A stretch of DNA of 64,000 nt from a virus. Its lineage: Duplodnaviria; Caudoviricetes. The notes beneath the pieces are model-generated. The model saw only the letters and a list, made by a program, of their open reading frames with translations. It was not told the origin of the DNA and ran no database searches. Shown here one piece after another: positions 12,030 through 36,204 of this stretch. A program made the position numbers and the translations under genes. The stretch spans positions 2,140 through 66,139 of the IMG/VR virus record IMGVR_UViG_3300032245_001567; one strand, written 5' to 3'. The first letter of the stretch is position 1. Each line of letters starts with the position of its first letter.

Positions 12030-12902
12030 TTATAAAGTACCCGTGTAGGTCAGAGTAGAAAACACCAATTTATCATTGGTGGTCATCAAAATGGGTTGAT
12101 TGAGCGTATTATAGGAAACCCAAAATAATCCCAAACTTGAATTAAACGAAAGAGAATTTGCAATTGCTTGTGCACTTGTAAAATTCCCCGTTAAATTTTG
12201 CGTAGAAAACGATGGGTCTCCTACGTTTTTGTACTGCAAAGATATTTGAGTAATGTTAAATGGTTCATTATTGCCAAAAGCCCATTGCCACAAACCATTT
12301 GCGTTTGCACTTTGCTTAAAAGTATCGGGTGCACCGCCCAAAAGCGATACGATACCCGTAAATGCGATAGTTGAAGGACTACTATTGTTTTTAACCCGTA
12401 AAGGAATCAAAATATTCCTATCGGTATAACTATCCGCCTCTCTTTCAGGGAAATCGGATAAGAAGTCGTAATAATTCAGTTCTTCAAAAAGCGTAGGAGA
12501 ACTCAACAAATTACTTGTAGACTGCTCCATTACGCTAAATACTACCACAATATCTTCTTGTGATAAAATTGGGACGTTGAAATTCTGCATCCCGTTAAAA
12601 GTAAATTGCTCATCGGCTTGTTCGTTGATTACATCGCTTGTAATCGCAGAAACGAATTGATATGGGTCAATTGTAGGGGCAAGTACTTTTTGTTCAAATA
12701 TACCCCGTCTATTGTTCTTCTGAAGCGTTATAACTTGAAACAATTGGTCATAGGTTAATGATTTCATGTACATCCCATTGAGGCTATATTGATAACCTTG
12801 CCCTATGGCTTGTTGAATAACATCATAGGAAGTGCTTCCACCTCCCGTAATTTCCAACCAAGGAAAACCAAAATTATCATATCCTACCGCAATAGTTCCC
12901 AT
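12030..12902 (-). CDS. paralogue of the candidate major capsid protein (minor capsid/vertex protein)
   Basis: QKVLAPTIDPYQF matches QKVFVPTIDPYQY of 25115..25813; beta-rich; extra C-terminal domain. Confidence 0.6.
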   Translation of the reverse strand: MGTIAVGYDNFGFPWLEITGGGSTSYDVIQQAIGQGYQYSLNGMYMKSLTYDQLFQVITLQKNNRRGIFEQKVLAPTIDPYQFVSAITSDVINEQADEQFTFNGMQNFNVPILSQEDIVVVFSVMEQSTSNLLSSPTLFEELNYYDFLSDFPEREADSYTDRNILIPLRVKNNSSPSTIAFTGIVSLLGGAPDTFKQSANANGLWQWAFGNNEPFNITQISLQYKNVGDPSFSTQNLTGNFTSAQAIANSLSFNSSLGLFWVSYNTLNQPILMTTNDKLVFSTLTYTGTL

Positions 12903-13222
12903 TATTTAGCCATTAAAACGTCTTTACCTTCCAAATTCCTTGCAACAAACTGATTACCGCTCTTATAAACGCGTAAGCCATAAGTGTTGGCTAACTCATT
13001 GTTAAGTGCATTCAAGTTTTTAGCACTTTCGCGATTTTCTACTGCACTCATAAAAGCATCCAATGCAATCATAGCATTTTCTTTGTCTTTCAATTCTTGC
13101 TTAGGAGCAACATCAGGCTTAGGAATACCTCCTTTGCCTCGTGGTGTAGTAATAAAAACCACCGCGACAACAATGCCGAGTGTTATAAGGGCTTCTTTAA
13201 CTTGCGTATCAAACATCATCAT
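12902..13222 (-). CDS. N-terminal TM virion membrane protein
   Basis: ALITLGIVVAVVFI. Confidence 0.65.
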   Translation of the reverse strand: MMMFDTQVKEALITLGIVVAVVFITTPRGKGGIPKPDVAPKQELKDKENAMIALDAFMSAVENRESAKNLNALNNELANTYGLRVYKSGNQFVARNLEGKDVLMAK

Positions 13223-13779
13223 ATCTTAATATCCTTAGAACCAATTAGTGTGTATGTGAAGGAATTTGGGTAAAATTCGAGAGATTTTTTGACAATTTTC
13301 ATGAATTCCAAGAAATCTTTTTTGCGTTTGAATACTTGGCAACCTTCAGACCAATTATTAACGAAGTTAGAATCTTCACCCGCCATGTGGATATTTATTC
13401 CCTGAGCATCGGTGTAGATTTTACTTTCATCGTATGTTCCATCTTTTAAATTAAAATCGCGGTAAACACGAAGGGGTCTATATTGACAAAGAGCATCGTA
13501 TAAGCCACGATGTTTGCGAACCATAAAGCATGAAGTATATTGCCACTCTACTAAACGAGCACTACCTTCTCCATTATCGGTGGTGATTGCCCATGAGAAG
13601 TGTTTCCATTCTCCATTTTCTTTATAAGAAACGCAAATAGTATCGTCGAAACGATTGGTAACTTTTTTACCCGTAGATGAATTTCTAATCCCAACGATGT
13701 TAAGATTAAAATCACCTTTTTCATACCACTTGTAACCAAGTGATTTTACGGCTTGTTCTACTTGCTCTTTGGTGTACAT
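13219..13779 (-). CDS. putative endolysin, L,D-transpeptidase(YkuD)-like
   Basis: GINIH...NWSEGCQVF His/Ser-x-Gly-Cys motif. Confidence 0.7.
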   Translation of the reverse strand: MYTKEQVEQAVKSLGYKWYEKGDFNLNIVGIRNSSTGKKVTNRFDDTICVSYKENGEWKHFSWAITTDNGEGSARLVEWQYTSCFMVRKHRGLYDALCQYRPLRVYRDFNLKDGTYDESKIYTDAQGINIHMAGEDSNFVNNWSEGCQVFKRKKDFLEFMKIVKKSLEFYPNSFTYTLIGSKDIKI

Positions 13780-13781
13780 AG

Positions 13782-14141
13782 TTATTTTTTTACAACGTAA
13801 ACGATTACCCCAACCAAAGCCAAAGCACCAATACCTAAACCAACATAAAGCGCAGTATTGCCCTTAGAAGGTGCAGGTTGATTACCTTGATTGGCGAGGA
13901 TGGAAAGTTTTTGTAATTGCAATTGTTGGGCTGCCGTATCTTTTGCTATACCTAACTCAGCATTTAATCTTTGTTGGCTCATGTTGTAGTCCATCTTTCT
14001 ACGCTTAGAAGCGTCGACTCCACCAACTACAACTTTACCTATTGCTTCAATTATTTGCCCAACATTTCCACCACCTGAAGCGGTAGAACCTGCACTTGCG
14101 CCCGTTTCGGCAGCACTTCCTGCTATTTCTCCTAAATTCAT
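13782..14141 (-). CDS. C-terminal TM virion membrane protein
   Basis: G/A/S-rich N-terminus; ALYVGLGIGALALVGVIVYVVKK. Confidence 0.7.
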   Translation of the reverse strand: MNLGEIAGSAAETGASAGSTASGGGNVGQIIEAIGKVVVGGVDASKRRKMDYNMSQQRLNAELGIAKDTAAQQLQLQKLSILANQGNQPAPSKGNTALYVGLGIGALALVGVIVYVVKK

Positions 14142-14142
14142 A

Positions 14143-14479: not shown

Positions 14480-15193
14480 TTAAAATACTTTAGAGCCTAC
14501 ATATTCACCCAATATTTTATAATTGGGCATTTTTAAGTGAATACCATCAGTCGAATTCGCCCTTGTAAAAGAAGGATAAGGAGGCACAATTGCGTATGCC
14601 CCCTTTAAGTTTTTTTGTAAGGAAGAATAGAAAGAAGATAGTCTTTTTGCAGATAACCTTAATGCATCTTGGGTTGCACCTTTGTACATTCGAGATAAAT
14701 CAAATGAAGTAGATACTTTCATAGGGTCATAACCCGTAACCACGATAACCTTGCTACCCTTTTTGTTTCCTGCATTAATCATCGCTTGGATGTTGCTAAT
14801 GCCATCTTGAGTACTTTTGGCTGCTTGGGCTTCGGTTAGATTCCCGTAAATATCGTTTGTGCCACCCCAAATAAAGATGTAATCGGGAGTGGGTTTTGTG
14901 GCAAGGTAAGTATTAAGATTGCTCAACATCCAAGATGTTGTTTTACCATTTCCCGCCACTTTTGCAAGTGATGCTAAACCATACTTATTTTTGATGGCTT
15001 CCCCCCAAGAGTTTGTAGCAAAAGTGTGGCTATCGCCAACTACGAGCATACTTTTCCCTTTGGTAGGTAATTTGTCACCACCCTTTGTGCCATAATCATC
15101 TTCGCCTGAAGAAGATTCGTCATACGCCTTTTGTGCTTGTTTAGCACCAACAAGCAATGACCATAAACCCGCTATCCAAAACATATTTATCAA
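14480..15193 (-). CDS. membrane-anchored SGNH/GDSL hydrolase
   Basis: VVGDSH block I, GGTND block III, DGIH block V; hydrophobic N-terminus. Confidence 0.85.
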   Translation of the reverse strand: MINMFWIAGLWSLLVGAKQAQKAYDESSSGEDDYGTKGGDKLPTKGKSMLVVGDSHTFATNSWGEAIKNKYGLASLAKVAGNGKTTSWMLSNLNTYLATKPTPDYIFIWGGTNDIYGNLTEAQAAKSTQDGISNIQAMINAGNKKGSKVIVVTGYDPMKVSTSFDLSRMYKGATQDALRLSAKRLSSFYSSLQKNLKGAYAIVPPYPSFTRANSTDGIHLKMPNYKILGEYVGSKVF

Positions 15194-15557: not shown

Positions 15558-16598
15558 TTATGATTTTAGTAAAACTTTATAAGGAATTCCATTGATGATT
15601 ACCGACCAACTTCTATCACTTGTAAGAGATTCAACTCTTATTGTTCCTGCATTGTAAGCAGCAGAACCAACAACAAATTGATTTGCTCCCGTAGAAGACG
15701 CGCCTCTACCAATAACAATAGATGCATCGTGTGCGACTACGTCTTGACCGATACCAATCACTGAAGAATGAGAAGAAGTATTTACTTGAGCATTACTTCC
15801 AATTAAAACATTCGACTGACCTGCTACAATAGTATTACCTGCGCTAAAGCCAATTCCCACGTTATTGTTGGATGTGTTATTTTGCAAAGAATATGTACCT
15901 ATCGCTACGTTGTTTTCACCAATAGAATTTGCAAATAATGAAGCAGCACCGATAGCCGTATTGTACGACCCCGTAGTATTATTTTCTGCGGAAGAACCTC
16001 CAACTGAAATATTGTATGTACCCGTGGTATTTAATCTACTTGCATAAGTACCGATAGCCGTATTATTTGAATATACGTTATTTTGCAAGGCTTGATATCC
16101 GATAGCAGTAACTCCCGTAGCGTTGGTTGCAGTTTCGTTTGCAAAACTTCCAATTGCTACGTTTTTAAATCCCGTATTGATAGAAAAACCACTTCTATAT
16201 CCAATCCCTACGTTGTCGTAACCCGTAGTATTAGAATTTAAAGCCAAATTACCTATCGCAGTATTTTCATATCCCGTAGTGTTATTTGTTAATGCTGAAG
16301 CACCAAATGCCGTATTTGTTCCAATCCCCCCCTTACCATAATTCGCAACTTGATTGGAAGCAATTCTCAATGCAGAAAAATTATTTTTATTATCTGAAAC
16401 CGCTTGAAGCGTAGTTGAGATATCGTTTGCAACTTTTAAATTACCACCACTTGAACTCGTAATATAGTCTGATAAATTTTGAACATTGCCATTAATGTCT
16501 TTGATTTTAATTACGCCATCTACGTCATCGACAAAAAGGGCAAGACTATTGCCATCGGGAGATTTTATAGTATTTTTAAGGGATTTGGTTACACTCAT
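15558..16598 (-). CDS. spike/fibre protein 1, beta-helical repeats
   Basis: About 14-aa NTAIGxxALxxNTTG repeats (Hep/Hag-like). Confidence 0.8.
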   Translation of the reverse strand: MSVTKSLKNTIKSPDGNSLALFVDDVDGVIKIKDINGNVQNLSDYITSSSGGNLKVANDISTTLQAVSDNKNNFSALRIASNQVANYGKGGIGTNTAFGASALTNNTTGYENTAIGNLALNSNTTGYDNVGIGYRSGFSINTGFKNVAIGSFANETATNATGVTAIGYQALQNNVYSNNTAIGTYASRLNTTGTYNISVGGSSAENNTTGSYNTAIGAASLFANSIGENNVAIGTYSLQNNTSNNNVGIGFSAGNTIVAGQSNVLIGSNAQVNTSSHSSVIGIGQDVVAHDASIVIGRGASSTGANQFVVGSAAYNAGTIRVESLTSDRSWSVIINGIPYKVLLKS

Positions 16599-17057: not shown

Positions 17058-17561
17058 TTACGGGTAATACTCCTTATACAAATTGTAAAGGTTTTTGCCC
17101 GTGTTGCTAAATTTAATAGGAATTGTTGTAAATCCGAATGGGGTTTTAACTTTCATGTTACCTACGAAATCCAAATCGATATCTTGCTTTTGGATTAATT
17201 GTACTACAATATCTCTCCAATTTTTGAAAATCTTTTCGGGGATTACTTCAATAGTAACGAAAATTTGGGTCTTTCCATCGGGCTTAATTGTATAAGCCTC
17301 TGATTGCTGAATCTTTGACAATAAAGCATTCTGAGAGAAAATACTCAAATCAATATCCTTGATTGTGGCTTCAAATGCACTCTTATTTATAATGGTGAAA
17401 TACAAATTGAATTTCAACGTAGGGCTAACACTTACCAATTGATAAGAATCAACGCTATAGTCCCATTGTTGGGCTAACATTACATTTTTGTAAACGTAAC
17501 GCAACAACGCAGAACCCATCAATACTGAGCCACCGATTAATAGTACTTTTTTCGCGTCCAT
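17058..17561 (-). CDS. LEA_2/WHy-like membrane protein
   Basis: N-terminal TM then beta-sandwich pattern IINKSAFEATIKDI...TIKPDGKTQI. Confidence 0.6.
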   Translation of the reverse strand: MDAKKVLLIGGSVLMGSALLRYVYKNVMLAQQWDYSVDSYQLVSVSPTLKFNLYFTIINKSAFEATIKDIDLSIFSQNALLSKIQQSEAYTIKPDGKTQIFVTIEVIPEKIFKNWRDIVVQLIQKQDIDLDFVGNMKVKTPFGFTTIPIKFSNTGKNLYNLYKEYYP

Positions 17562-18205
17562 TATCTTGATTTAAAATATAAAAATCCACCAATTGCAACA
17601 ACTACCAAACCACCTACGATTAAAGTAGATGATTTAATTTCTTTGCCAAATATTTTAACTCCTTGTCCACTTGAAGATGTTGAATCACTTGCGCTTGAAT
17701 CACCTCCGCTTGATGAAGCATCAGAAGTTGGATATTGAACACTTGGTGGTGCACTTGGAGGAGCACTTGAAGAAAGTGTAGGCTTATTTGAAGCGGTTGC
17801 CGTTGGGGCTTCTAAAGCACTCATAGAACGCTCAAGTTCAGCAATTTCATTATTTTTCAATGCAATTTGCTTATCCAATTCGCGAATAGCAGTTGATGCT
17901 TGTTCGATAGCCTTTTTTGCTTGACGAAGCATTAAGTCACCTTTTTTAAAAGCACCTCTTGCTATTTCCCTATTGGCTCTATCTTTCTTGTCATTTTCAC
18001 TATCAAGTTTAACTTGCTCATCTGCACGTTTCTTTTGTAAAGAACTGATTTCAGATTGTTTAGATTTAATCTTCTTTTGATAAGAAGCAACTTCCTTTTG
18101 ATAGTTATCAATAGAACCATCAGCAGAATAAAATCTATCGCCCCCCATGTAAGCAGGGATAGGCGTAATTTGAATTCCAAGTTGTTTGTTTAATGCTTTT
18201 TTCAT
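17561..18205 (-). CDS. coiled-coil, S-rich linker, C-terminal TM virion protein
   Basis: FYSADG motif, coiled coil, poly-S linker, TM plus KSR. Confidence 0.7.
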   Translation of the reverse strand: MKKALNKQLGIQITPIPAYMGGDRFYSADGSIDNYQKEVASYQKKIKSKQSEISSLQKKRADEQVKLDSENDKKDRANREIARGAFKKGDLMLRQAKKAIEQASTAIRELDKQIALKNNEIAELERSMSALEAPTATASNKPTLSSSAPPSAPPSVQYPTSDASSSGGDSSASDSTSSSGQGVKIFGKEIKSSTLIVGGLVVVAIGGFLYFKSR

Positions 18206-18206
18206 C

Positions 18207-18533
18207 TTATTTTTTCTTTACGAAATGGACAATGGTTGCCACCAATGCTATAGCGGTCAAACCAATTCCAATTGTAAAAATGGTTTTTCTACTAATTTTT
18301 GGAGCACTTTCAGTTCCCTCCCATTCAAAATCAACACCTTTTTGTAAGTTAATTGGTTGATATGTTTTTGCAAACGATGGTTCTAATACAATATTACCAC
18401 TTTTAGTTGAAACAAATGTTCCACCATTATCATCTACTATTAAAGTAGAGCCTTTAGTGATAGTAGTAGCCAATTCCCCCGCAGGTTGTTGTCTGAAAAT
18501 TTGAATATTTTTTAATGCGATTGCTTGTTTCAT
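18207..18533 (-). CDS. C-terminal TM virion protein
   Basis: TM followed by KKK. Confidence 0.7.
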   Translation of the reverse strand: MKQAIALKNIQIFRQQPAGELATTITKGSTLIVDDNGGTFVSTKSGNIVLEPSFAKTYQPINLQKGVDFEWEGTESAPKISRKTIFTIGIGLTAIALVATIVHFVKKK

Positions 18534-18534
18534 A

Positions 18535-19047
18535 TTATTTTTTCTTTATTATGTAAACGATAGTTCCAACTAAAGCCAAAACACCTATACCAATACCAAC
18601 GTAAAGCATGGTTTTTTTGCTTTCACTTGAAGCAGAAGTATTTGAAGCACCACTTGCCGTAGCACTTGAAACTGATTCCTTTAATTGGCTTAAAAATGCG
18701 GTATCTTCAGATTGTTGCTTATTGATTTTGCAATTCAATGTGCGATACTTGTCTTCAAGTTTTTTCTTTTGAGAACTCAAAACTTTTTGATAATCGTTCA
18801 AAACGCGTTTTTCGCCTCTTTTTGTACTTGGATTAGCAAGTTTCACCCCATTATTTGCAATTTCGGCATCAATACTTGCGATAGTATTGTCCAACTCCAT
18901 GCAATCTTCGGAAATAGGATACCATTTATCAACTTGGGTTGCACGAGAATCTCCGCCCGTAGCGTTGCTATACTCGTTTGCAAATGAGATACGTCCATCC
19001 ATACCGAATGACATATCATTGTCTTTATAAAAAGAATCTATTTCCAT
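18535..19047 (-). CDS. C-terminal TM virion protein
   Basis: YSNATG motif; TM LYVGIGIGVLALVGTIVYIIKKK nearly identical to that of 13782..14141. Confidence 0.7.
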   Translation of the reverse strand: MEIDSFYKDNDMSFGMDGRISFANEYSNATGGDSRATQVDKWYPISEDCMELDNTIASIDAEIANNGVKLANPSTKRGEKRVLNDYQKVLSSQKKKLEDKYRTLNCKINKQQSEDTAFLSQLKESVSSATASGASNTSASSESKKTMLYVGIGIGVLALVGTIVYIIKKK

Positions 19048-19049
19048 GA

Positions 19050-19442
19050 TTATTTTAGTGTTTTAATGAAGTAGTCAATTTGTGATTTATCTTTAATTGG
19101 CAATAATTGTTCGCCAAAAATATAAACTATGGCTTTTATACTATTGTCACCAATTAATCCATCAACATCTAAAGGCGCATTTGGGAATTCTTTCTCAGGA
19201 TGATTTACAAAATATAAGTTCATTTTGCTTTGAAGCAATCTTGCTTTATCCCTAAATGCAGAATCCTTCATTGCTTCTGCAATTAAATTCAACCCACCTT
19301 TTTTGTATGGTTTTAAATCCATATTAGGGTCAAGAGGTTCATCTGCACCTCCTTTTCCTCTTTGGTTTTTTATATGCAAAGCCAAACCTGCTATTAATAG
19401 CAAGAGACCTCCTAAAAACATATTTTTATCATTCTTTTTCAT
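19050..19442 (-). CDS. N-terminal TM protein with PG-binding-like motif
   Basis: LDVDGLIGDNSIKAI resembles PG_binding_1 DGxxG. Confidence 0.55.
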   Translation of the reverse strand: MKKNDKNMFLGGLLLLIAGLALHIKNQRGKGGADEPLDPNMDLKPYKKGGLNLIAEAMKDSAFRDKARLLQSKMNLYFVNHPEKEFPNAPLDVDGLIGDNSIKAIVYIFGEQLLPIKDKSQIDYFIKTLK

Positions 19443-19446
19443 ATAC

Positions 19447-19944
19447 TTATAATTTTATTACATCCTCTCTAATATAAAGAGTTTTAGGCTTATTTGCCCA
19501 AACATCTCTTGTAAGAAAATTCCTTTGATTGTCTTGAATTTCTTTATACACGGCATCAGTAATTGTAACACCAAGCCACTTCCATTTTTGTTGAGTGCTT
19601 TTATTGAAAGCACCGCCTTTATCTTCAATAGGAGCAGTAGTAACTAAACCTATTTTAGTTCCACTTTTAGGGATTTCACCATATAAATTATCAATAAAAC
19701 CATCATCTGCAAAAGGTTCAGTACGAAGTTTTGCTGAATCTACTTTTGATATAATAGTTAAACCTTTCGTTGATTTTTCACGAATTTTAACGTCAAGTTT
19801 AGGGTCGGGAATATTTTGAGCACTCGTTGATTCTTGAGAATTATCATCTCCTCCATCATCTTTCTTTTTACCCAAAACGATATACATCGCCAATAAAACT
19901 GCGAATAAAGCACCCGTTTTTATTATTGATTTTTCATTTATCAT
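19447..19944 (-). CDS. N-terminal TM protein, SH3b-like
   Basis: AKLRTEP...KWLGV...YIREDVI. Confidence 0.5.
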   Translation of the reverse strand: MINEKSIIKTGALFAVLLAMYIVLGKKKDDGGDDNSQESTSAQNIPDPKLDVKIREKSTKGLTIISKVDSAKLRTEPFADDGFIDNLYGEIPKSGTKIGLVTTAPIEDKGGAFNKSTQQKWKWLGVTITDAVYKEIQDNQRNFLTRDVWANKPKTLYIREDVIKL

Positions 19945-20114
19945 TTTGGTTCTTTTTTAATCTTTTCAATCAAATCCTTCATTTCATTATCCAACGTAGG
20001 ATTAGTATCACTCACTCCTCCTTTTTTACGGATATTCTTATATAAAGCATTGATAAGGATTGAGCCAACAATGCCAATTGAAACCCATAATACTATTTTC
20101 TTATTTCCTTCCAT
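19941..20114 (-). CDS. 57-aa N-terminal TM protein (not in ORF track)
   Basis: MEGNKKIVLWVSIGIVGSILINALYKNIRKKGG...; ATGA-coupled to the next gene. Confidence 0.75.
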   Translation of the reverse strand: MEGNKKIVLWVSIGIVGSILINALYKNIRKKGGVSDTNPTLDNEMKDLIEKIKKEPK

Positions 20115-20115
20115 G

Positions 20116-20571
20116 TTACCCTAACTTAGATTTATAATATACATACCCACGAAGACCAATGTAACCAATCCCCATGAATAACATTGAATAAAGAGCAACT
20201 TTGATAAATTTTCCGCCCCCTAAAGTATTTCCAATTTCACTTATAGAATTGGCTACGCCATTCACTAAATCAAAACCAGAGCCACTAATATCTAATAACT
20301 GAGGGATAAGAGGTATAGCCACACTTGCGTATGGGTCTAATCCTTCTTTTTTAACATACGCACGAAAATTTGTATTAAAAGTTCGGCAATCCCAATGAGA
20401 TGCGAACTCAGTTCCTTGAGCGTATGCATAATTCCAAATCAATTTAGCGCGTTCTTCGCCAAAATGATTCTTCAATTGTTTATGCCAAGTTACCCAATCA
20501 TCACAATTCCAAGCGGTATCTTTCCCCCACTTGTCGTAATCGGGCACTATGTTCCATGTTGTTACTGCCAT
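20116..20571 (-). CDS. Trp-rich protein with C-terminal TM
   Basis: WNCDDWVTWH; TM at end. Confidence 0.7.
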   Translation of the reverse strand: MAVTTWNIVPDYDKWGKDTAWNCDDWVTWHKQLKNHFGEERAKLIWNYAYAQGTEFASHWDCRTFNTNFRAYVKKEGLDPYASVAIPLIPQLLDISGSGFDLVNGVANSISEIGNTLGGGKFIKVALYSMLFMGIGYIGLRGYVYYKSKLG

Positions 20572-20575
20572 TTCT

Positions 20576-21358
20576 TTACTGAATTATCATGTTCATACTT
20601 TCAAAGTCGTTGATGAATTTGTTAATTACATCGTAACGCTCTTTGTTTTGTTGACTTGGTACACCTTTAAAGGTTTCCAAGAATGCTTGATAGGCTTCGA
20701 TACGAGGATATCCTAAACCCAAATAGATTAACAATCCATTCAAGTCTGCTTCGATTTCGTTGTCCATTTGTTCATTCAAATAGAAATGCGAAAACTCGTG
20801 CAAAAGGATAGCCAATCGCATGGGTACAGTCATTTCTTTGAATGCTTTTTTGCTCACTTGAATCACACCCGTTCTACGAGAAATTCTTGCGGGGGTGTTC
20901 ATCTCCTGCTTGTTCTTATTTAAAATAGTAGGCAATAGTTGAATATAGTATTCTCTATCGCTACTTGTATAAATTTGATTAGGCTCAAGTTCGTCCAAGT
21001 TGAATGAAAATCTTTGAGCAAAATCCACAAAACTACGCACCTTCGCGTCACGGATATCATTGATATCAATTCTACGCTCTAATGGCAATTTCTCAACGGA
21101 TAAAAACTCGAAGTTTTCCTTTTCGCCTTTTTTTACAATTCCTTTATCGGGAGTTACTTCTACAATAGCAACATCAGGGGTCAATGGCATCCTTACAAAT
21201 AAAGATTCCTCCCCTTTGATGGTCTTATAGCGATTGGTAAAAACTCGATTAGGGTTTGATGCATCGTAAACCTTCAAACGCAACTTTTGAGGCGTATCGG
21301 TTTTCACCTTCACCTTCAAGTTAAGTTCCTTAAAATTGGTAGTTACTTTGTACTTCAT
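20576..21358 (-). CDS. zincin metalloprotease (candidate maturation protease)
   Basis: ILLHEFSH (HExxH) and EIEAD third-ligand motif; located inside the structural operon. Confidence 0.75.
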   Translation of the reverse strand: MKYKVTTNFKELNLKVKVKTDTPQKLRLKVYDASNPNRVFTNRYKTIKGEESLFVRMPLTPDVAIVEVTPDKGIVKKGEKENFEFLSVEKLPLERRIDINDIRDAKVRSFVDFAQRFSFNLDELEPNQIYTSSDREYYIQLLPTILNKNKQEMNTPARISRRTGVIQVSKKAFKEMTVPMRLAILLHEFSHFYLNEQMDNEIEADLNGLLIYLGLGYPRIEAYQAFLETFKGVPSQQNKERYDVINKFINDFESMNMIIQ

Positions 21359-21573
21359 TATCCAATTGCGTTTTTAGTTTCGTCGGGTGTTTCATTAACT
21401 TTTACATCACCATTCTTTAGTTTGTCTAAAGCACGTTGGATGCTATCGGGTTCGATGTTTTCAGGCTCTAACCCTTTGTTTAATGACGTAGCAGTACTCG
21501 CAAAATAAATTGCTCTTGCTACTACGAAAATGCAACCTCCTATGGCGATTTTAATTAAAAGTTTTTTGTTCAT
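21358..21573 (-). CDS. N-terminal TM protein
   Basis: IAIGGCIFVVARAIYF. Confidence 0.65.
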   Translation of the reverse strand: MNKKLLIKIAIGGCIFVVARAIYFASTATSLNKGLEPENIEPDSIQRALDKLKNGDVKVNETPDETKNAIG

Positions 21574-21839
21574 GCATTTTTTGCTTTAATAAGCCTATAA
21601 CTGAGGTAGACTAAACTTAAAATGCCAATGCCAAACAAAACATTTCGCACCATTACATTTTTACCGCTACCACTTGGTTCTTTGCCCTCATCACCGAGCA
21701 TATTTAACATCTCTTTGTTGGCTTCAACATTCGGGATGTAAATACCCTTGGCTTTTTCTCTTTCAATCCATTCCTTGAAAGGGAGTGTAGTACCGCTTTC
21801 ACGATACAATTGATTCGCTGTTTTTGGTGTGTTGTTCAT
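21570..21839 (-). CDS. C-terminal TM protein
   Basis: MLNMLG motif; TM at end. Confidence 0.65.
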   Translation of the reverse strand: MNNTPKTANQLYRESGTTLPFKEWIEREKAKGIYIPNVEANKEMLNMLGDEGKEPSGSGKNVMVRNVLFGIGILSLVYLSYRLIKAKNA

Positions 21840-21840
21840 A

Positions 21841-22727: not shown

Positions 22728-22808
22728 AATATTAGTGTTTTGATTTCCAACATTTGTAACCAAGGTATAAACCTAACGCGCCTAACGCGTAGTGAAGATA
22801 TTTCATTT

Positions 22809-23126: not shown

Positions 23127-23127
23127 G

Positions 23128-23529: not shown

Positions 23530-23530
23530 A

Positions 23531-26094: not shown

Positions 26095-26121
26095 AAAAAA
26101 GCCCTTGATTATAAGGGCTTT
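26095..26121 (-). terminator. terminator/palindrome after the ATPase
   Basis: AAAGCCCTT-GATTAT-AAGGGCTTT with T6 on the - strand. Confidence 0.7.
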
Positions 26122-26158
26122 CCATTGTTTGCGTATTGTTGTTGCAAAATAAACTTTT

Positions 26159-26968
26159 TTATGTATAAGTTTCGAGCAACTTCTTTTTTACCATTTTTAT
26201 CGCATTTTCTTGCGTGTACATGGGTCTATTCTTTGAATCTTTCATGGTCATATAAGGACGAATTAATTTCCGTTGATTCATAATGATGAATTCTTGAATA
26301 GCATGGTCCATTTTCTTTGGTTCTACTTGCCCCAAAAATTTCATTTCATCCAAATCAATGTATTGATAATATCGCTTATTGCCCGATTGGTATTCGTTGT
26401 TAACGATAATTTCAACCAACTTGAGGAATTCGTATTTGTCCTCAAACTTGTTTTGGTGTCTATCAACGGAGTCTAAGTTTTTATGGAAACGCATCCAATT
26501 AAGGTTTTGCCACAACTTTGTGGTGATACGTCCAATAGATTGGAAGTGCATTACAATATCCAAATCAACGTGTCGATTGGTACAAATCGCTCCTTCGATA
26601 TCTTTGGGCAAAGCATCAGAAACGTAGCGGTTAATATCCTCAATCAACAAAAGCCCCCCTCTATACTGCTCAAGTATTACAAATAAGGTTTCTGCAATCT
26701 TATCAAGAGTCATCCTTTTGCCATCGGGCATAAAAGGTCTTATTCTACGAATTTCAATTAGTGGGTGCACGGAAAAACGCACAATATCTTTAAGGGCGAT
26801 TGGTTTAAATTGGGTGTACTCGTCGTTTACATCCAAAATCAAAACTTTACGTCCTGCTGTACCCTTACTTGGATTTCCCATAGCATAGTGTTGCAACATA
26901 ATATTGGTGGTATAAGATTTACCTACACCTTTTTTACCTACTGCTACTCCTAATTGTGGTTCTCTCAT
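26159..26968 (-). CDS. genome-packaging ATPase, FtsK-HerA (A32/P9-like)
   Basis: Walker A GKKGVGKS, Walker B LLLIED, NRHVDLDIVMHFQS arginine-finger/Q motif. Confidence 0.8.
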   Translation of the reverse strand: MREPQLGVAVGKKGVGKSYTTNIMLQHYAMGNPSKGTAGRKVLILDVNDEYTQFKPIALKDIVRFSVHPLIEIRRIRPFMPDGKRMTLDKIAETLFVILEQYRGGLLLIEDINRYVSDALPKDIEGAICTNRHVDLDIVMHFQSIGRITTKLWQNLNWMRFHKNLDSVDRHQNKFEDKYEFLKLVEIIVNNEYQSGNKRYYQYIDLDEMKFLGQVEPKKMDHAIQEFIIMNQRKLIRPYMTMKDSKNRPMYTQENAIKMVKKKLLETYT

Positions 26969-28017
26969 TTTTTACGTCTTTTTGCATTACCGCCCGAAGC
27001 GATGTTCTCCATGTGGCTCAACAATTCTGCATCGCCAAATTCGGGCATTGGGGTTGATTTAACTACTCTTGATTTTCTTGTTTTCCTTACTTTTGGGGTT
27101 TCGGGTTGTAAGTCATCCAAAACCTCATATTGTGTAAATTCGTTTCCTTTGCTTGTTTTCTTCTCTTCGGGTTCTGAATACTCCCTTGTAGATTGTGGTG
27201 GTGCTTCGTAAACGGGTTCTTCTCTAACGGGTTCTTGTTGTCTTGCCTCTTGTCTTACTTCATTAGTAGTATGAGAAGTTTGCGGTTGTGCATACGCTCC
27301 CGCTTGTTTCATTTCTTTCAATTGTTCCAATATGGCATTGTTCTGAGAACGGATACCATAAATCTGAATTGAAGTGGTCAAAATATCGCTCACCGCATAG
27401 TATGCTAACAACTGCTCGTCGGTCATACCAATGTTACGCTTCATTAAGACGCGTAGCAATACGGGGGTTACTTTTTCCCTGAACTCCTCGCTCATCCCGA
27501 TTGTCTCGGATACCTCTTGGTTGTAAACTTCAACAAAATCCATTAAAGGAATCATCTTGCCGTTACCCATAGGAATCATCGTGTTCGGGTCAATCTCACC
27601 ATCATTGATTAATTTCTTCACCTTGCTTGGTGAAATCATCAATAACTTGTTTGAGAATTGCTTCAATTGTCCGTAACCATCCAAGATAGCATCAACCATA
27701 GCCATACTTGCTTGTTTCTGCTCTTTCTTATCAAGATTCTCGGTGTAAGGGTTAGCACTACTTGGTGCATCTTCCCTTCCCCATACTTGACGTGGGTCGG
27801 CTGAACCGCTTGGGTCTTCTTCGCCTAATTGGCTACGGAAATTATTATCAAGTTCTTCAAAACTTGGTACGGCAAAAGTTGGCTCTTCGATTGGTGAAAA
27901 ATCATTTAGAGTTACATTCGGTTTGGTGTAATCCCTTTGGACTACATTATCGTCTAATGGGCTAAATGGAATGGTATTGAATGTGCCGTCTTCAATTGGT
28001 GATTGTTGTTCGCTCAT
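26965..28017 (-). CDS. acidic hypothetical protein coupled to the ATPase
   Basis: ATGA overlap; weakly hydrophobic helix LLAYYAVSDIL. Confidence 0.7.
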   Translation of the reverse strand: MSEQQSPIEDGTFNTIPFSPLDDNVVQRDYTKPNVTLNDFSPIEEPTFAVPSFEELDNNFRSQLGEEDPSGSADPRQVWGREDAPSSANPYTENLDKKEQKQASMAMVDAILDGYGQLKQFSNKLLMISPSKVKKLINDGEIDPNTMIPMGNGKMIPLMDFVEVYNQEVSETIGMSEEFREKVTPVLLRVLMKRNIGMTDEQLLAYYAVSDILTTSIQIYGIRSQNNAILEQLKEMKQAGAYAQPQTSHTTNEVRQEARQQEPVREEPVYEAPPQSTREYSEPEEKKTSKGNEFTQYEVLDDLQPETPKVRKTRKSRVVKSTPMPEFGDAELLSHMENIASGGNAKRRKK

Positions 28018-28471: not shown

Positions 28472-28907
28472 TGGTGTAATCCGCTATTAAGATTGAGCCT
28501 TCATATCCCCATACTTTTCTAATGTGGTCGTACATATAGATATATGAATCATCGGTGCAAAGAGCATCTTTGAATGCTTTCACTAAGTTGTCCAAGTCGG
28601 GCTTTTGTTGATGTGGCGTGGAAGCCATCATTTCGCGCTTCTTGTTAGACCATGATGAAGGCATCGGCATTACAAATATAAGGGAAAGTGGGTTTGAAAC
28701 AATATATTTATCTCGTAAACTAAACAACTTCAACGCATCCTTGAAAGCGTAGTATTGTTGGACGGGTTTTCTCGGTGGGGAAAGCCACTTATCCCGTTGG
28801 GTCATACGAGGTTTTGGGACGGGAGTAATCTCCCATGTAAGTATTCTCTTATTTAGAGGTTGTATTTCTTGTTCCATTCTTTGCTCTGAATTATTTTCTT
28901 CGCACAA
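28464..28907 (-). CDS. rusA: RusA-like Holliday junction resolvase
   Basis: PVPKPRM, KPDLDNLVKAFKDAL..DDS. Confidence 0.88.
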   Translation of the reverse strand: MCEENNSEQRMEQEIQPLNKRILTWEITPVPKPRMTQRDKWLSPPRKPVQQYYAFKDALKLFSLRDKYIVSNPLSLIFVMPMPSSWSNKKREMMASTPHQQKPDLDNLVKAFKDALCTDDSYIYMYDHIRKVWGYEGSILIADYTND

Positions 28908-29509
28908 AGTTTGGCAAAATCTATATCTGAAGGATAGTGTAAGCCGTAGAATAATCTTTGCTCACTCACTTCATTCGCCATGGCTTGTAAATACTCATAG
29001 CGTTCAGGATACATCGCCCCTAAAGTTTCTTTAACCAATTCCATTTGGAAGGTATGCCCCGAAGGGAAAGAAGGCGTATCGGACGAAGCCGAAATCTTTG
29101 GGAATAATGAAACCTTATAATAGTTCGCTAAAACTTGTGGTCTTGGTCGGTTGTACTTAAATTTTATTTTCAGCAATAAAGGAAGTGTACTTTCAATAAT
29201 CTCATCTATGAGGTCATTGGTACTATCTCCATGGCTTTTAAATAATCTTTTGATTGCTTGTGATAGATTTGTATCATATAATTCATATCGCTTTTTCGTA
29301 TCCTCCGAAAGGCGGGTGAATTCTTTTTGATAGTCTACCAATGTATTCAATTCGTCTTTAACGAGTTCTGAATAGTTCTTGGGGCACTTTGTTTCAGTCA
29401 TCAAGGGAATTAGATGGTCAAACTCCGTTGCGGTCTGAACAATCGGAAGTTGGAGGTAATTTGGATTACCAAATACGACTACATCAATTGCTTGATTCAT
29501 ACTTTTCAC
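28853..29509 (-). CDS. PAP2/haloperoxidase-superfamily phosphatase
   Basis: KFKYNRPRP, PSFPSGH, RLFYGLHYPSD. Confidence 0.88.
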   Translation of the reverse strand: MKSMNQAIDVVVFGNPNYLQLPIVQTATEFDHLIPLMTETKCPKNYSELVKDELNTLVDYQKEFTRLSEDTKKRYELYDTNLSQAIKRLFKSHGDSTNDLIDEIIESTLPLLLKIKFKYNRPRPQVLANYYKVSLFPKISASSDTPSFPSGHTFQMELVKETLGAMYPERYEYLQAMANEVSEQRLFYGLHYPSDIDFAKLCAKKIIQSKEWNKKYNL

Positions 29510-30220: not shown

Positions 30221-31876
30221 TTATGGGATAAGTGCAGACATCAATATTTTATACTTAGAGCCATTAATGGTAACTAACCAAGTATTTGCTTGAGCCACGG
30301 CTTCAGTAGTTACTGTGCCTACGTTTTTTCCCGCAGTAGAACTACCAACTACAAATTGATTTGAAGCAGTTGCGGTTGCACTATCGCCTAAAATAACAGA
30401 GTTGTTAAAGTTGCCAGTACTAACGTTATAACCTAAAGCAGAGTTATTTTGTCCTTGTCCATTTGCAGAAGCACCAACGATAGCATTAGTAGCAGATGTA
30501 GTACTTGAACTTATTTGATAGCCTATATAAGTGTTTCCTGCTCCTGTTGTTAAAGTGGTAGAGGAAATAGCACCTACAATTGTGTTAGTTGCACCTGTAG
30601 TTATACCAGAACCTGTGCCTGAACCAATTAACGTATTATTAGCAGCACTCGTTTGAGCAAATCCAGTGTTATATCCAATTGCAGTATTTCTACTTCCCGA
30701 ATTACTTGCACCACCAAGAGCGTTATAACCAATAGCCGTAGACTGACCAGTTGCGTTATTATTTGCAAGCAATGCTTGATAGCCAATAGCAGTATTTTGT
30801 GGTGACGTAGTTGCAGCACCTAAAGCGTCTTTACCAATAGCCACAACACCAATTGCAGTAGTAATCGAATCTCCTGCTTGATAACCAATGAAAACATTAT
30901 CTGAACCCGTAGAGACGTTAGTACCTGCTTGATAACCTAATGCAGTATTATTACCTCCAGTTGCTAATCGTAACGCTTGATAACCAAAAGCAGTTATTGC
31001 TCCACCATTACCTGTTAATCCAGCCTCAAATCCAAATGCGGTTAAACCAGTTCCATTTGTTGCGTTTTTACCCGCAAAAGCACCAAAAGCAGTATTATTA
31101 CTTCCACTTGTTATACCATACAATGATTGGTAACCAAATGAAGCGTTATAATCTCCGCTAATATTGGTAAGTAGAGATTGACTACCTACTGAAGTATTAA
31201 ATCTACCATTAATTAAATTTAATAAAGATCGATAACCTACCGAAGTATTATCGTTACTTGTGGCAACTAATAAAGATTGGTATCCAATTCCCGTGTTATT
31301 GTTTCCAGTCGATGCCCTTAGTGCTTGATATCCTAACGCAGTTAAACCTGTTCCAATAATATTTGTTAATGCCGATTCATATCCAACTGCTACGTTAGCA
31401 TCAGCCGTATTATTTTGAAGCGCAGTTCTTCCGATTGCGGTGTTGTTATTACCGATTAAGTTATTTTGAAGTGCTCTTCCCCCCAAGGAAATATTTCCCG
31501 TTCCCGTTGTGATAGAACTTCCTGATAAATATCCAACAGCCGTATTTGCTCCCGCAGTTGCGAGAGTCAATGCTTGATAACCGATAGCAGTGCTTTCAGT
31601 TCCAATTAGATTCGATTTTAATGCTTGATATCCGAATGCAGTTCCCCCCGTTCCCGTTGTATTTGAGGAAAGAGCGTCTGCACCAAAAGCGGTATTACCT
31701 ACTAACTTACCACCTCCACGATTTGTAATAGAAGTTGTTGATATTAAAAGAGGGCTATCATTACCCAAGCCATCAGAAACGGCTTTCAAAGTTGAAGTAA
31801 GATTAGCGTTATCAGAAAGTTTTAATAACGCTTGATATGTATTTGCGGGGGTTGTATTCGTTAAGGTATTTCCCAT
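30221..31876 (-). CDS. spike/fibre protein 2, beta-helical repeats
   Basis: Many NTAxGYQAL repeats; C-terminus NQFVVGS...WLVTINGSKYKIL shared with fibre 1. Confidence 0.82.
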   Translation of the reverse strand: MGNTLTNTTPANTYQALLKLSDNANLTSTLKAVSDGLGNDSPLLISTTSITNRGGGKLVGNTAFGADALSSNTTGTGGTAFGYQALKSNLIGTESTAIGYQALTLATAGANTAVGYLSGSSITTGTGNISLGGRALQNNLIGNNNTAIGRTALQNNTADANVAVGYESALTNIIGTGLTALGYQALRASTGNNNTGIGYQSLLVATSNDNTSVGYRSLLNLINGRFNTSVGSQSLLTNISGDYNASFGYQSLYGITSGSNNTAFGAFAGKNATNGTGLTAFGFEAGLTGNGGAITAFGYQALRLATGGNNTALGYQAGTNVSTGSDNVFIGYQAGDSITTAIGVVAIGKDALGAATTSPQNTAIGYQALLANNNATGQSTAIGYNALGGASNSGSRNTAIGYNTGFAQTSAANNTLIGSGTGSGITTGATNTIVGAISSTTLTTGAGNTYIGYQISSSTTSATNAIVGASANGQGQNNSALGYNVSTGNFNNSVILGDSATATASNQFVVGSSTAGKNVGTVTTEAVAQANTWLVTINGSKYKILMSALIP

Positions 31877-31878
31877 TG

Positions 31879-32028
31879 TTATCCAAAGTTACAATTGTTC
31901 CAAAATGTATTTATATCTTGCCAATACTCATAGTCGATGTATTGCCAAAAAGTCGTTGCAAAACAAGTGGGTGTTCCGCCCCCAAGGACGGAAAACCCAA
32001 TGATGTTTATGTTTGCTATTTCTAACAT
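31879..32028 (-). CDS. 49-aa spike adaptor-like protein (not in ORF track)
   Basis: MLEIANINIIGFSVLGGGTPTCFATTFWQYIDYEYWQDINTFWNNCNFG; exactly fills the gap. Confidence 0.7.
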   Translation of the reverse strand: MLEIANINIIGFSVLGGGTPTCFATTFWQYIDYEYWQDINTFWNNCNFG

Positions 32029-32297
32029 TAAGTTAAAGCGATTATTCCAGTAGCATTAGTGCCCGTTTGCCAAAGTTTTTTAACTTGGATAGGCAAAAAT
32101 GCTCCACTTGGTACGTTTTGAAAGGTCGCTATTTGACCTCCGATAGAAGTTACTTTTATATTCCCTCCAACACCTACATATAGGCAAACTCCGCTTTCGA
32201 TACTATCAGAGATGGGAATTCCACCAATGCTAATATTTGCGTTGTCGTTTGGGGTAATTTCTTGAAAATTATATGCTTGTAGTTGATAGACGGGCAT
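32028..32297 (-). CDS. vertex spike-base protein, RcGTA Rcc01079-like
   Basis: LYVGVGGNIKV...TFQNVPSGAFLPIQVKKLWQTGTNATGIIAL. Confidence 0.72.
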   Translation of the reverse strand: MPVYQLQAYNFQEITPNDNANISIGGIPISDSIESGVCLYVGVGGNIKVTSIGGQIATFQNVPSGAFLPIQVKKLWQTGTNATGIIALT

Positions 32298-34389: not shown

Positions 34390-34392
34390 AAA

Positions 34393-35235
34393 TTAGAAAG
34401 TGAATTTACGCAATTTTATTAATTCAAGGTATCCGCCCACGCCACAAATGCGTTTCACATAAGTTTTTGTAACGGGAGCAACTAATTCAGTCGGAAGCGT
34501 TAAATATTCGTCGGGAGTATATTTTGCCATTGAACTAACTCTCCATGGATTACCATTTTTATAAAAACCTCCGTTATATCCATTGATTACCCAATCAACA
34601 CGAATTCTATTGATTGAGCCTTCAGCAACTACGCTTAGGGATATAAGTTGAGATAAATACATCATACCAATATGCAAACCGAATAATTTATCGGTCATCA
34701 TTAACTGATTGTATTTGTTTTCGGGTTTTGCCGAATCATTTTTTTTCGGGAATTTTGGGTCATAAACAAGATAAATACCTCCTTCAACTGCACCTTTATA
34801 GGTCATCAAATCCTTTACTGATTTTTGTCTAAATTGAAGATTATCCCTATCCCAAAGGTCTGCCATTTTAGGGATTTTTACACCCTTCTTTAAAGTGAAA
34901 GCATTTGGGCATTTGTAGTAAATGTAGAAAAATTTGTTAAATGGGAATTCTTCGTCAAAGGCAAATTTGATTACCCCGTCCAAGGTTGCAGCATTTGTTT
35001 GCATTGCCCCATAAGATAAACCATCTTGACTTCTTCCCGTATTACCGCCATTTTCAACTACGGCTACGGAAAACGCCAACGCCAAATTAACATCATGAAT
35101 ATCCGCTACATCACGAATTTCTTTACCACTTTTATTAAAAGTAGATTGCATATCCGCTAATCCTTGGGCTTCAGTTCTATCAGAAGCATAAGAAACAAGC
35201 GGAGTTTTAATCTTTACATTGGTGATATTTGCCAT
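34393..35235 (-). CDS. lytic transglycosylase (SLT-like)
   Basis: AVVENGG catalytic Glu, GAMQ, GMMYL, GYNGG, TKTYVKRI. Confidence 0.78.
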   Translation of the reverse strand: MANITNVKIKTPLVSYASDRTEAQGLADMQSTFNKSGKEIRDVADIHDVNLALAFSVAVVENGGNTGRSQDGLSYGAMQTNAATLDGVIKFAFDEEFPFNKFFYIYYKCPNAFTLKKGVKIPKMADLWDRDNLQFRQKSVKDLMTYKGAVEGGIYLVYDPKFPKKNDSAKPENKYNQLMMTDKLFGLHIGMMYLSQLISLSVVAEGSINRIRVDWVINGYNGGFYKNGNPWRVSSMAKYTPDEYLTLPTELVAPVTKTYVKRICGVGGYLELIKLRKFTF

Positions 35236-35396
35236 TAGTCTAATTCAGCCTCCTCTAAAGCCTTACGATTTTCTCGATTTAGTTTAACTTCAATTCTCCT
35301 TGGAGTATTTCTCCAATATAAAAATCCTATCCCCGTTGCTACTAACAAAGCACCAAGTACAATAAGGACTTGTTTTTGATTACTTGTGATTACCAT
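35235..35396 (-). CDS. 53-aa TM protein (not in ORF track)
   Basis: MVITSNQKQVLIVLGALLVATGIGFLYWRNTPRR... Confidence 0.75.
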   Translation of the reverse strand: MVITSNQKQVLIVLGALLVATGIGFLYWRNTPRRIEVKLNRENRKALEEAELD

Positions 35397-35731
35397 AAAA
35401 TTTTATCTGCAAAGTACCCTTTTGTACCACGTTTATGTCTATCCTTTTCATGGCGTGTTTTATAGGCTTTTCTCCGCTTTTCAGCAGTACCTTTAGCAAC
35501 CTTGCCTTTATTTTCTAAAACCTTGAATGTTGGATAGTCGTTGTAGCCTAATGCGCCAACGGAAGCGAGTTTTTCGCCCTTTTTATTAAACACATCAATC
35601 TTCTTGCCCTTCGTATTTGAAGGCTTGATAGTAACGCCAAGTTTAGTGGCTTGAGAATAAGAATATGGGGTAATGCGATAAGAGGATTTCTTACCGCTAT
35701 TAGACCCAACAAGTTTTTTAAATATGCTCAT
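35390..35731 (-). CDS. basic protein, DUF5754-like
   Basis: KKIDV...VGALGYNDY...RRKAYKTRH...KILW. Confidence 0.7.
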   Translation of the reverse strand: MSIFKKLVGSNSGKKSSYRITPYSYSQATKLGVTIKPSNTKGKKIDVFNKKGEKLASVGALGYNDYPTFKVLENKGKVAKGTAEKRRKAYKTRHEKDRHKRGTKGYFADKILW

Positions 35732-35736
35732 TAATA

Positions 35737-36204
35737 TTACTCTCGATTAAGGGTGTTTACCGCACCCAAAGTCAAGAGTAAAGCAGTTATACCAAAAATC
35801 CATTTGATAGCCCCACCTTTTTTCTTGGGCTTATCATCATGGTTATTAGGTACGGGAGGCGTAGGAGGAGTTGGGTTATCAACCTTATCAGTTGGTGGTG
35901 TAGGAGGCTCATCAATAGGAGCGGGAGGTGTTGGAGGTTCATTTAACTTATCCAATTTTTCTTTCAAAATTTGGATTGAGTTTAGAATGCCTTTTTCCAA
36001 TTCCTTCAAATATTCTTCAGCCTCTTCAATCTTTTCCCCAATTTCACTCTTTACGTCTTCGTCTTCTTCTTCTTCAAATTCAGTGCGAGATTCCTCAAGC
36101 GTTTCAGCCAAACCTTCATAGTGAAGAATTTTATTCTGAACTGCCTTTGGTAATTCTTCTTGTTTAAACCCGTTCTTTTCTAACGCTAATTCGATGTTGT
36201 TCAT
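35737..36204 (-). CDS. acidic coiled-coil, Pro-rich, C-terminal TM protein
   Basis: EPPTPP repeats, TM at end. Confidence 0.7.
   Translation of the reverse strand: MNNIELALEKNGFKQEELPKAVQNKILHYEGLAETLEESRTEFEEEEDEDVKSEIGEKIEEAEEYLKELEKGILNSIQILKEKLDKLNEPPTPPAPIDEPPTPPTDKVDNPTPPTPPVPNNHDDKPKKKGGAIKWIFGITALLLTLGAVNTLNRE

Follow-up and report, generated by a model that had tools for sequence, protein, structure and literature searches.

A probable morphogenesis module for tailless, membrane-lined, jelly-roll-type particles in a large uncultured phage genome

The IMG/VR record IMGVR_UViG_3300032245_001567 is a single contig of 66,139 bp, and its minus strand carries a gene block that we discuss here as the candidate morphogenesis module of a large, tailless phage. 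The window, meaning the whole stretch of DNA that was analysed, comprises 64,000 nucleotides (bases 2140-66139 of the record), and all positions below refer to it. Only 2,139 bp of the record lie outside the window, and these contain small open reading frames (ORFs). The genes fall into two blocks that converge, one on the plus strand, with its end at 11987, and one on the minus strand, read from 64000 to 12030. The interpretation is built on a small ATPase, on a protein that is our candidate for the major capsid protein (MCP), and on the following elements of the minus-strand block.

26965-28017, minus strand: conserved protein of 350 aa, its stop overlapping the ATPase start, with an acidic, disordered N-terminal part and a basic C-terminal end
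26159-26968, minus strand: ATPase of 269 aa, with the motifs GKKGVGKS, LLLIED and RH...Q
26096-26123, minus strand: terminator-like hairpin right after the ATPase stop, an 11-pair stem with a T run
25845-25976, minus strand: putative single-pass membrane peptide of 43 aa, an ORF with one hydrophobic helix directly upstream of the capsid candidate
25115-25813, minus strand: MCP candidate of 232 aa, from an AlphaFold2 model and fold searches
25061-25091, minus strand: strong terminator-like hairpin 3' of the capsid candidate, a 12-pair stem with 7 G-C pairs and a T run
17561-25038, minus strand: series of genes for small single-pass membrane proteins, often with a C-terminal anchor, which are candidate virion membrane proteins by hydropathy
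12030-12902, minus strand: paralogue of the capsid candidate, 290 aa, by BLASTP and hhalign

The ATPase is the best anchored of these proteins. Nine of its residues (G11, K13, G16, K17, E110, D111, R132, H133 and Q143) are invariant in a family alignment of 40 sequences. Pfam recognises DUF87/HerA-central in it, at 25.4 bits against a cut-off of 23.2 and over residues 11-69 only. An AlphaFold2 model made with the family alignment reached a predicted local distance difference test (pLDDT) value of 91.1 and a predicted template modelling score (pTM) of 0.87. When this model was compared with the PDB by Foldseek, the best 12 matches listed were all the genome-packaging NTPase B204 of STIV/STIV2 (best E 1e-9), and the next family was Zot, with an E of 7.5e-6. 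A second, Foldseek-independent aligner (VIA) gave a Z of 17.0 for B204 (root-mean-square deviation 2.8, 184 of 204 residues), followed by DndH-C (15.2), HerA (15.1), VirB4 (14.7), TrwB (12.3) and FtsK (10.3). No terminase was among the best 50 structural matches listed, and the enzyme has no nuclease domain. The model thus strongly places the ATPase within the FtsK-HerA superfamily, and its nearest neighbour is the solved packaging enzyme of a membrane-containing jelly-roll virus. Sequence searches of the PDB, with the ATPase alone or with its profile, retrieved nothing meaningful, the best match being a Walker-A stretch of ClpB (E 0.016). The initial annotation had named the enzyme A32/P9-like. 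Its motifs and its B204-like fold agree with that name, but sequence similarity to PRD1 P9, PM2 P9 or the ORF13 ATPase of P23-77 was not found, so that the place in the A32/P9 family is one of predicted fold only.

The gene of the capsid candidate starts 345 nt downstream of the ATPase gene. The protein is predicted to have an N-terminal helix and a disordered acidic/Gly leader (residues 1-50), followed by one beta-sandwich (residues ~50-205). Its AlphaFold2 model, based on 100 diverse sequences, has a pLDDT of 81.7 overall and of more than 90 over residues 50-200. The best Foldseek match was the small subunit of cowpea mosaic virus (E 6.9e-4). A wide fold search retrieved the carbohydrate-binding module (CBM) of AlgX (Z 6.0), grapevine fanleaf virus (5.7), the penton protein P31 of PR772 (5.5), the MCPs of PBCV-1 and FLiP (both 5.1), phiCjT23 (5.1) and PM2 P1 (4.9), and interspersed among these were many CBMs, TNF/C1q domains and picornavirus proteins. 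As the structural tool itself cautions, a Z below 8 may reflect merely a common arrangement. All values being at most 6, they point therefore to the jelly-roll fold class at a generic level and leave homology to a capsid family unproven. A fold other than a jelly roll, the outcome that would have spoken against the proposal in the initial annotation, did not emerge for 25115-25813: the prediction is a single beta-sandwich with jelly-roll-class neighbours. It is one sandwich of ~150 residues within 232 aa, not a double jelly roll in one chain.

Further searches with the capsid candidate were less informative. Foldseek against BFVD gave weak, mixed matches, the best (E 3.9e-4) to an unnamed protein. 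The model in the ESM Atlas is poor (pLDDT 0.36) and its matches were uninformative, and the capsid profile found nothing meaningful by sequence in the PDB. A complex prediction for three copies of residues 48-232 scored 0.00 and, being made without controls, speaks neither for nor against self-assembly. The family itself is large, with 1,723 clusters at 90% identity (E <=0.001, among 1,919 candidates) and 576 clusters at 50% identity, all of them unnamed. Compared with three long relatives, the capsid candidate is the best-conserved protein of the genome (67-71% identity; ATPase 47-57%). It had been described from the start as a beta-rich, codon-biased gene adjoining the ATPase gene. The first and the last of these properties stand as they were, and the codon bias is present but moderate, with an effective number of codons (Nc) of 41.0, rank 6 of 55 genes (median 47.2), and a GC content at third codon positions (GC3) of 0.41.

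The capsid candidate also seems to have a transcription unit of its own, as had been proposed: a TAnnTTTG element lies upstream of the gene, and the hairpin at 25091-25061 lies downstream. Terminator-like sites are generally frequent here (8 in 3 kb, 2.2 expected). The order of the elements is ATPase, terminator, 43-aa peptide, capsid candidate, terminator, and then the small membrane-protein genes. All 21 related loci that were compared have a hydrophobic peptide ORF of 35-57 aa at this place; they had been picked by hand, before the outcome was seen, from 45 (41 from IMG/VR and four from genome contigs). The annotated records of PRD1 (P9, then the tiny genes gpi/P20, P3, P22...) and PM2 (P9, then the tiny gene P7, P2, P3...) have a matching order.

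A second protein of the same type is encoded at the end of the minus-strand block. BLASTP aligned this paralogue with the capsid candidate at 39% identity over 51 aa (E 7e-10), and hhalign aligned the two families over 107 columns with a probability of 98.6% (E 7.9e-16). The lineage therefore has two homologous jelly-roll-type proteins. The conserved jelly-roll part is formed by the N-terminal 130-145 aa of the paralogue. The remaining C-terminal extension of ~150 aa is absent from its relatives, which are 147-154 aa long. We consider the paralogue a candidate for a vertex (penton) protein or a second shell protein with an added outer domain. Its gene is 12 kb away from the capsid gene here, and 31 kb in a relative.

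In IMG/VR, the gene of the capsid candidate is present on 41 contigs, the longest of 102 kb; three of them, 100-102 kb in size, are rated 100% complete. Besides these, it is carried by a 132,486-bp contig binned with a Sediminibacterium metagenome-assembled genome (MAG). Over their whole length, two of the 100-kb relatives and the 132-kb contig share the gene order of our genome, and the extra size of the long relatives is mainly due to bigger spike and polyvalent proteins and to more membrane genes. For the 132-kb contig, the comparison covered synteny and ORF sizes only. It is phage-like, collinear from ~3 kb to 123 kb, and has a GC content of 0.30-0.36 throughout. The genome sizes in this lineage thus range at least from 66 to 132 kb. 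The possibility that the 132-kb contig is an integrated prophage was ruled out, as it is phage-like from end to end. A megablast search with 20 kb of the genome gave no match among 50,697 phage records.

A role of the 232-aa protein in the shell is supported indirectly, by its conservation, its terminator-bounded unit and the gene order around it. The most serious competing explanation starts from the same packaging enzyme: the virus would have a B204-like ATPase, but the 232-aa protein would not be the shell protein, or the particle would not be a PRD1-like icosahedron. The true capsid protein could then be encoded by another unrecognised gene, the jelly-roll protein could serve as a knob, a decoration or a membrane-associated protein, or the architecture could be a different one altogether. 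Structurally, the candidate has generic matches (Z <=6), TNF/C1q knobs, CBMs and phage tail parts among them, which would fit such roles, and no sequence link connects it with any known capsid protein. Yet no protein of the lineage is more conserved, and its gene has a terminator-bounded unit of its own by the ATPase gene, in the PRD1/PM2 order. Moreover, the genome and the three long relatives share no second soluble, beta-rich protein that is both conserved and of capsid size. For these reasons we regard it as unlikely, though worth keeping in mind.

The neighbourhood of the capsid candidate is rich in predicted membrane proteins. According to a 19-residue hydropathy rule, one membrane helix is present in half of the ORFs in 12030-36645 (24 of 48), compared with 9 of 70 in the rest of the genome. 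Two relatives are skewed in the same way (36 of 66 vs 7 of 74, and 38 of 81 vs 5 of 54). The initial annotation had counted about 30 small proteins with a single transmembrane helix in this block; the enrichment is real, and the count comes to the 24 ORFs plus the 43-aa peptide. Several of the candidate virion membrane proteins have Ser/Thr-rich stretches. The 350-aa protein encoded next to the ATPase shares 32-39% identity with the same-position proteins of relatives and has no Pfam or PHROG match; it is a candidate assembly, scaffold or packaging accessory protein. A match of this protein to ORF 29 of SSIP-1 (E 5.9e-5, 286 queries) was set aside as low-complexity and coiled-coil-like. The block has the following further genes.

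32028-32297, minus strand: fibre-associated protein of 89 aa (phrog_12296 'tail fiber protein', E 1.5e-11)
30221-31876, minus strand: spike/fibre protein with repeats, 551 aa (phrog_6002, E 4.8e-48; phrog_4636, E 2.6e-40)
15558-16598, minus strand: spike/fibre protein with repeats (phrog_6002, E 1.6e-25; phrog_4636, E 3e-23)
13219-13779, minus strand: candidate endolysin-like wall enzyme (phrog_3000, E 2.4e-21; phrog_33083 'endolysin', E 4.7e-4)
14480-15193, minus strand: GDSL/SGNH esterase (PF13472, E 6.7e-9; PF00657, E 2.2e-8)
28853-29509, minus strand: PAP2-superfamily lipid phosphatase (PF01569, E 1.2e-7), with 36-44% identity to relatives
20576-21358, minus strand: soluble protein of 260 aa with an HEFSH motif, 51-52% identity to relatives, no Pfam or PHROG match
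34393-35235, minus strand: protein of 280 aa with short lytic-transglycosylase-like motifs only

The two spikes had been recognised as such before the PHROG matches were available. The lytic transglycosylase (SLT) label that had been put on the 280-aa protein, on the other hand, was not substantiated, as neither Pfam nor PHROG matched it at E <=0.01. By its motif, the 260-aa HEFSH protein is a candidate zincin-like maturation or wall peptidase. The PAP2 phosphatase and the GDSL/SGNH esterase, both inside the virion block, may possibly be concerned with lipids if the particle is membrane-lined.

The genes of a tailed-phage particle were searched for in two ways. Six-frame searches used one Pfam family per function, and silent profile models of this kind are no proof of absence. 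The models PF05065 (Phage_capsid), PF04860 (Phage_portal) and PF03354 (TerL_ATPase) each matched in none of four records (this genome and three relatives), and PF03237 (Terminase_6N) matched in none of five relatives, a search that was run on relatives only. As a control, the capsid and portal models did detect an ordinary prophage on another contig of the Sediminibacterium MAG. PHROG scans covered 50 proteins of the genome, including 26 of the 30 ORFs of at least 230 aa (the other four were scanned against Pfam only), and ten large proteins of a relative. They gave no portal, HK97 capsid, tube, sheath, tape-measure or baseplate protein, only fibre and spike labels. For the terminase large subunit (TerL), the scans of the 50 proteins yielded nothing but a weak label on the B204-like ATPase. 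The six ORFs of at least 400 aa are accounted for by a spike, two polyvalent proteins, a MoxR-type ATPase, a glycosyltransferase and a DUF7192 protein, a family that also occurs in viruses labelled as tailed, which possess portals of their own. The largest proteins are the polyvalent ones and a spike. The absence of a tailed-phage module from the scanned sequences is thus well supported. The initial annotation had seen no terminase, portal, HK97 capsid or tail-body gene in 64 kb; the Pfam and PHROG scans agree, and the search for TerL, portal and HK97 capsid extended this to the whole 66,139-bp record and to the three 100%-complete relatives of 100-102 kb, and the synteny and ORF sizes of the 132-kb contig gave no sign of these genes either.

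Since other phage groups formerly lacked recognisable structural genes, the genome could in principle belong to a tailed phage (Caudoviricetes) in which the genes for terminase, portal, HK97 capsid and tail exist but have diverged beyond detection. The spikes do bear the PHROG labels 'tail spike' and 'tail fiber', phrog_2666 ('terminase large subunit') does match the ATPase weakly (E 3.6e-5), and RecT, RusA, MoxR, DUF7192 and the polyvalent proteins are typical of tailed phages. We nevertheless find this very unlikely: the ATPase, of 269 aa, lacks a nuclease domain and folds like B204 and HerA, the genome has no unassigned ORF of portal or TerL size, and the comparison with the long relatives leaves no conserved protein of HK97-capsid size unexplained. 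Furthermore, PF03354, PF04860 and PF05065 stayed silent in all four records, two of them being models that worked on the control prophage. A further alternative is that the block belongs to a conjugative or other mobile element, in which DNA transfer would be the task of the ATPase, the small membrane proteins, the polyvalent proteins and the transglycosylase-like protein. It is suggested by VirB4, TrwB and HerA among the structural neighbours of the ATPase (Z 12-15) and by the known occurrence of polyvalent proteins (ART-PolyVal, DUF2958) on conjugative elements as well as phages, but is hardly credible. B204 is the best match by both aligners, and the ATPase is one third of the size of VirB4. 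Among the 40 proteins compared with Pfam, no relaxase, coupling-protein or VirB4 family matched. The genome encodes spikes, fibres and an endolysin-like protein, and the contigs of the lineage exist as free-standing sequences of 66-132 kb.

Indirect signs, among them the signals around the genes, make a member of the Bacteroidota the probable host. Only 9 of 116 ORFs have a Shine-Dalgarno-like core in front of them, and the leaders are A-rich. In sense intergenic spacers, the TAnnTTTG element was counted 11 times in 2.5 kb (4.4 per kb, vs 0.8 per kb overall), a 5.5-fold enrichment. The full -33/-7 promoter pattern was found four times, with 0.86 expected, and one of 100 shuffles reached four. 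We take all of these to be traits of gene expression in Bacteroidota. The binning of the 132-kb relative with a Sediminibacterium MAG is a further hint.

Taken together, we assign a probability of about 0.65 to the reading that a large uncultured phage (66 kb, with relatives of 100-132 kb) has in this block its morphogenesis module and forms tailless, membrane-lined, jelly-roll-type particles. In such a phage, the separately promoted and terminated two-gene unit would yield an abundant 43-aa membrane peptide and the 232-aa jelly-roll protein, which would together form a shell over a lipid vesicle. Some 25 single-pass proteins of the phage would reside in this vesicle. The shorter paralogue (12030-12902), here with an added C-terminal domain, might be the vertex or second shell protein, and the repeat-rich spikes would bind the host. 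The small B204-like FtsK-HerA ATPase would dock at one vertex and pump double-stranded DNA into the preformed particle. Wall enzymes, the esterase and the zincin-like protein may act in entry, exit or maturation.

Several observations weigh against this reading. Both the lack of a tail and the inner membrane are predictions from the genes. The best Z of the capsid candidate, 6.0, is to a carbohydrate-binding module, that of AlgX, and lies below the level that the tool considers meaningful. TNF/C1q knobs and CBMs score level with capsid proteins, which is compatible with a fibre-knob or other role, and the solved single-jelly-roll capsid proteins of P23-77 and haloarchaeal viruses are not among the best 50 matches listed. 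The profile of the capsid family found nothing in PRD1, PM2, P23-77 or SSIP-1, and the profile of the ATPase family, with all filters off, found nothing at E<1 in the ORFs of these four viruses. By tblastn, neither protein had a match in the 50,697 phage records. The paralogue is not located beside the capsid gene, unlike in Halopanivirales. All records are 'linear' without end repeats, and the one studied here is 88% complete. With respect to the host, the link to Sediminibacterium is one of binning only, to a contig that is phage-like throughout, and short relatives were found in MAGs labelled as Bathyarchaeia (an archaeon) and Planktophila (an actinobacterium).

RecT, RusA, a tRNA-Gln (62385-62456), a MoxR-like AAA ATPase and glycosyltransferases, all listed in the initial annotation, were recovered by scans of the window. 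The idea expressed there, of a larger lineage of tailless-type viruses with caudoviral-style accessory genes, is supported by the combination of the B204-like ATPase, the jelly-roll-class protein and the absence of tail genes. The record is classified as 'linear' and 88% complete by CheckV, and neither direct nor inverted terminal repeats were found in it, in two 100-kb relatives or in the 132-kb contig. The GC content ranges from 31 to 40% per 2-kb window across the stretch and is 36% for the full record. No replicative polymerase, primase or helicase was recognisable among the scanned proteins.

The plus-strand block encodes a DNA methyltransferase, a DUF932 protein (2999-3796, E 2.5e-34; an accessory family), a PD-(D/E)XK nuclease and RecT. 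Conserved proteins without a Pfam or PHROG match are encoded in this early block at 7339-8118, 5722-6786, 1863-2864 and 9029-9901. Three of the early genes, 52-282, 285-989 (the methyltransferase) and 1863-2864, match the opposite end and strand of a 101-kb relative, which suggests either a rearrangement or that a circular or permuted genome was cut elsewhere.

On the minus strand, a 'polyvalent' block (36662-47794) with DUF2958, an ART-PolyVal ADP-ribosyltransferase and DUF5661 surrounds the MoxR-type AAA ATPase and the DUF7192 protein. Polyvalent pieces that are separate here are fused in relatives: 36662-38473 and 38475-39197 both match one ORF of 2,575 aa, and 44373-46805 and 46817-47794 both match a single ORF of 1,933 aa. 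The same region encodes a 330-aa protein (43351-44343) with long, strongly acidic Gly-Glu/Gly-Asp repeats and no family match. It is followed by a glycosyltransferase cluster (48050-55852), consisting of one GT1-type and three GT2-type enzymes and one FkbM-type methyltransferase, in addition to one weaker methyltransferase-domain match under the Pfam cut-off. A WDGH-domain protein, from another accessory family, is encoded at 59914-60531 (E 1.3e-30).

Going one step further, the genome and its relatives may represent an undescribed, widespread lineage of bacterial viruses, of family rank or higher, with genomes of 66-132 kb and membrane-lined, tailless particles made from one small single-jelly-roll protein and a short paralogue. 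We put this forward tentatively, at somewhat less than even odds. A full-text literature search, judged by titles and the openings of abstracts, brought up no account of a large tailless Bacteroidota phage lineage. If the proposal is true, these genomes would be several times larger than those of any described bacterial jelly-roll virus, and the particles would probably measure at least 100 nm across and have a high triangulation number. Prokaryotic viruses with a jelly-roll capsid and a membrane are generally considered small, and a common aquatic lineage of this size would break the assumed tie between this particle build and small bacterial-virus genomes. It would pair the motor and gene order of the build with recombination genes, a tRNA, glycosyltransferases and giant polyvalent proteins. 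In case the shell consists of homo-oligomers of a single jelly roll, the lineage would be a living example of the ancestor postulated to precede the double jelly roll, and it would offer a concrete target for studying how a small single-jelly-roll protein tiles a very large shell. It would also mean that virus-classification pipelines may misfile a large group of non-tailed phages.

Among known systems, the solved protein most similar to one encoded here is B204 of STIV/STIV2 (Turriviridae), likewise a small stand-alone FtsK-HerA-type ATPase without a nuclease domain. The two share 13-17% identity over the aligned structures, the ATPase of our genome has ~55 extra C-terminal helical residues, and by sequence it matches no PDB chain. 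STIV has an archaeal host, a double jelly-roll capsid protein and a small genome.

With PRD1 and PM2 the likeness is one of gene logic. They have in common with our genome the succession of ATPase, tiny membrane gene or genes, capsid gene and small membrane-protein genes, as well as spikes and, here as candidates, wall enzymes and a penton-type small jelly-roll protein. They differ in size (14,927 bp and 10,079 bp, respectively, vs 66,139 bp) and in their capsid proteins, which are double jelly rolls of 269-395 aa rather than a single sandwich in 232 aa, and their proteins have no profile similarity to the ATPase and capsid families of our genome. A terminal protein, PolB or an inverted terminal repeat was not seen in our genome. 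A metagenomic survey put prokaryotic double jelly-roll viruses at ~7-18 kb (PMC5894146).

The capsid concept is closest to that of Halopanivirales (P23-77, IN93, SH1 and kin), which have single jelly-roll capsid proteins. The shell candidate, too, is predicted to be a single jelly-roll-class protein; it has a second, paralogous one and an ATPase gene just upstream. However, the capsid genes VP16 and VP17 of P23-77 are adjacent in a genome of 17,036 bp, whereas here the paralogue lies 12 kb off and is ~150 aa long in relatives; again, no profile similarity was found between the proteins of P23-77 and the ATPase and capsid families of our genome.

SSIP-1, whose host genus Salisaeta is classed in Bacteroidetes, is a tailless, membrane-containing phage, a build predicted for our lineage too, and likewise has a comparatively large genome. 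Its genome is circular and has 43,788 bp, compared with 66-132 kb here, and profile and phmmer searches found no similarity of its ORFs to the ATPase, capsid or paralogue profiles. Two capsid protein types and a PRD1-type architecture have been described for SSIP-1 (PMC6356626). Our genome is bigger than the records of PM2, PRD1, P23-77 and SSIP-1, that is, than all membrane-type jelly-roll phages compared. The closest known systems are thus B204 by solved protein, PRD1 and PM2 by gene logic, Halopanivirales by capsid concept, and SSIP-1 by size.

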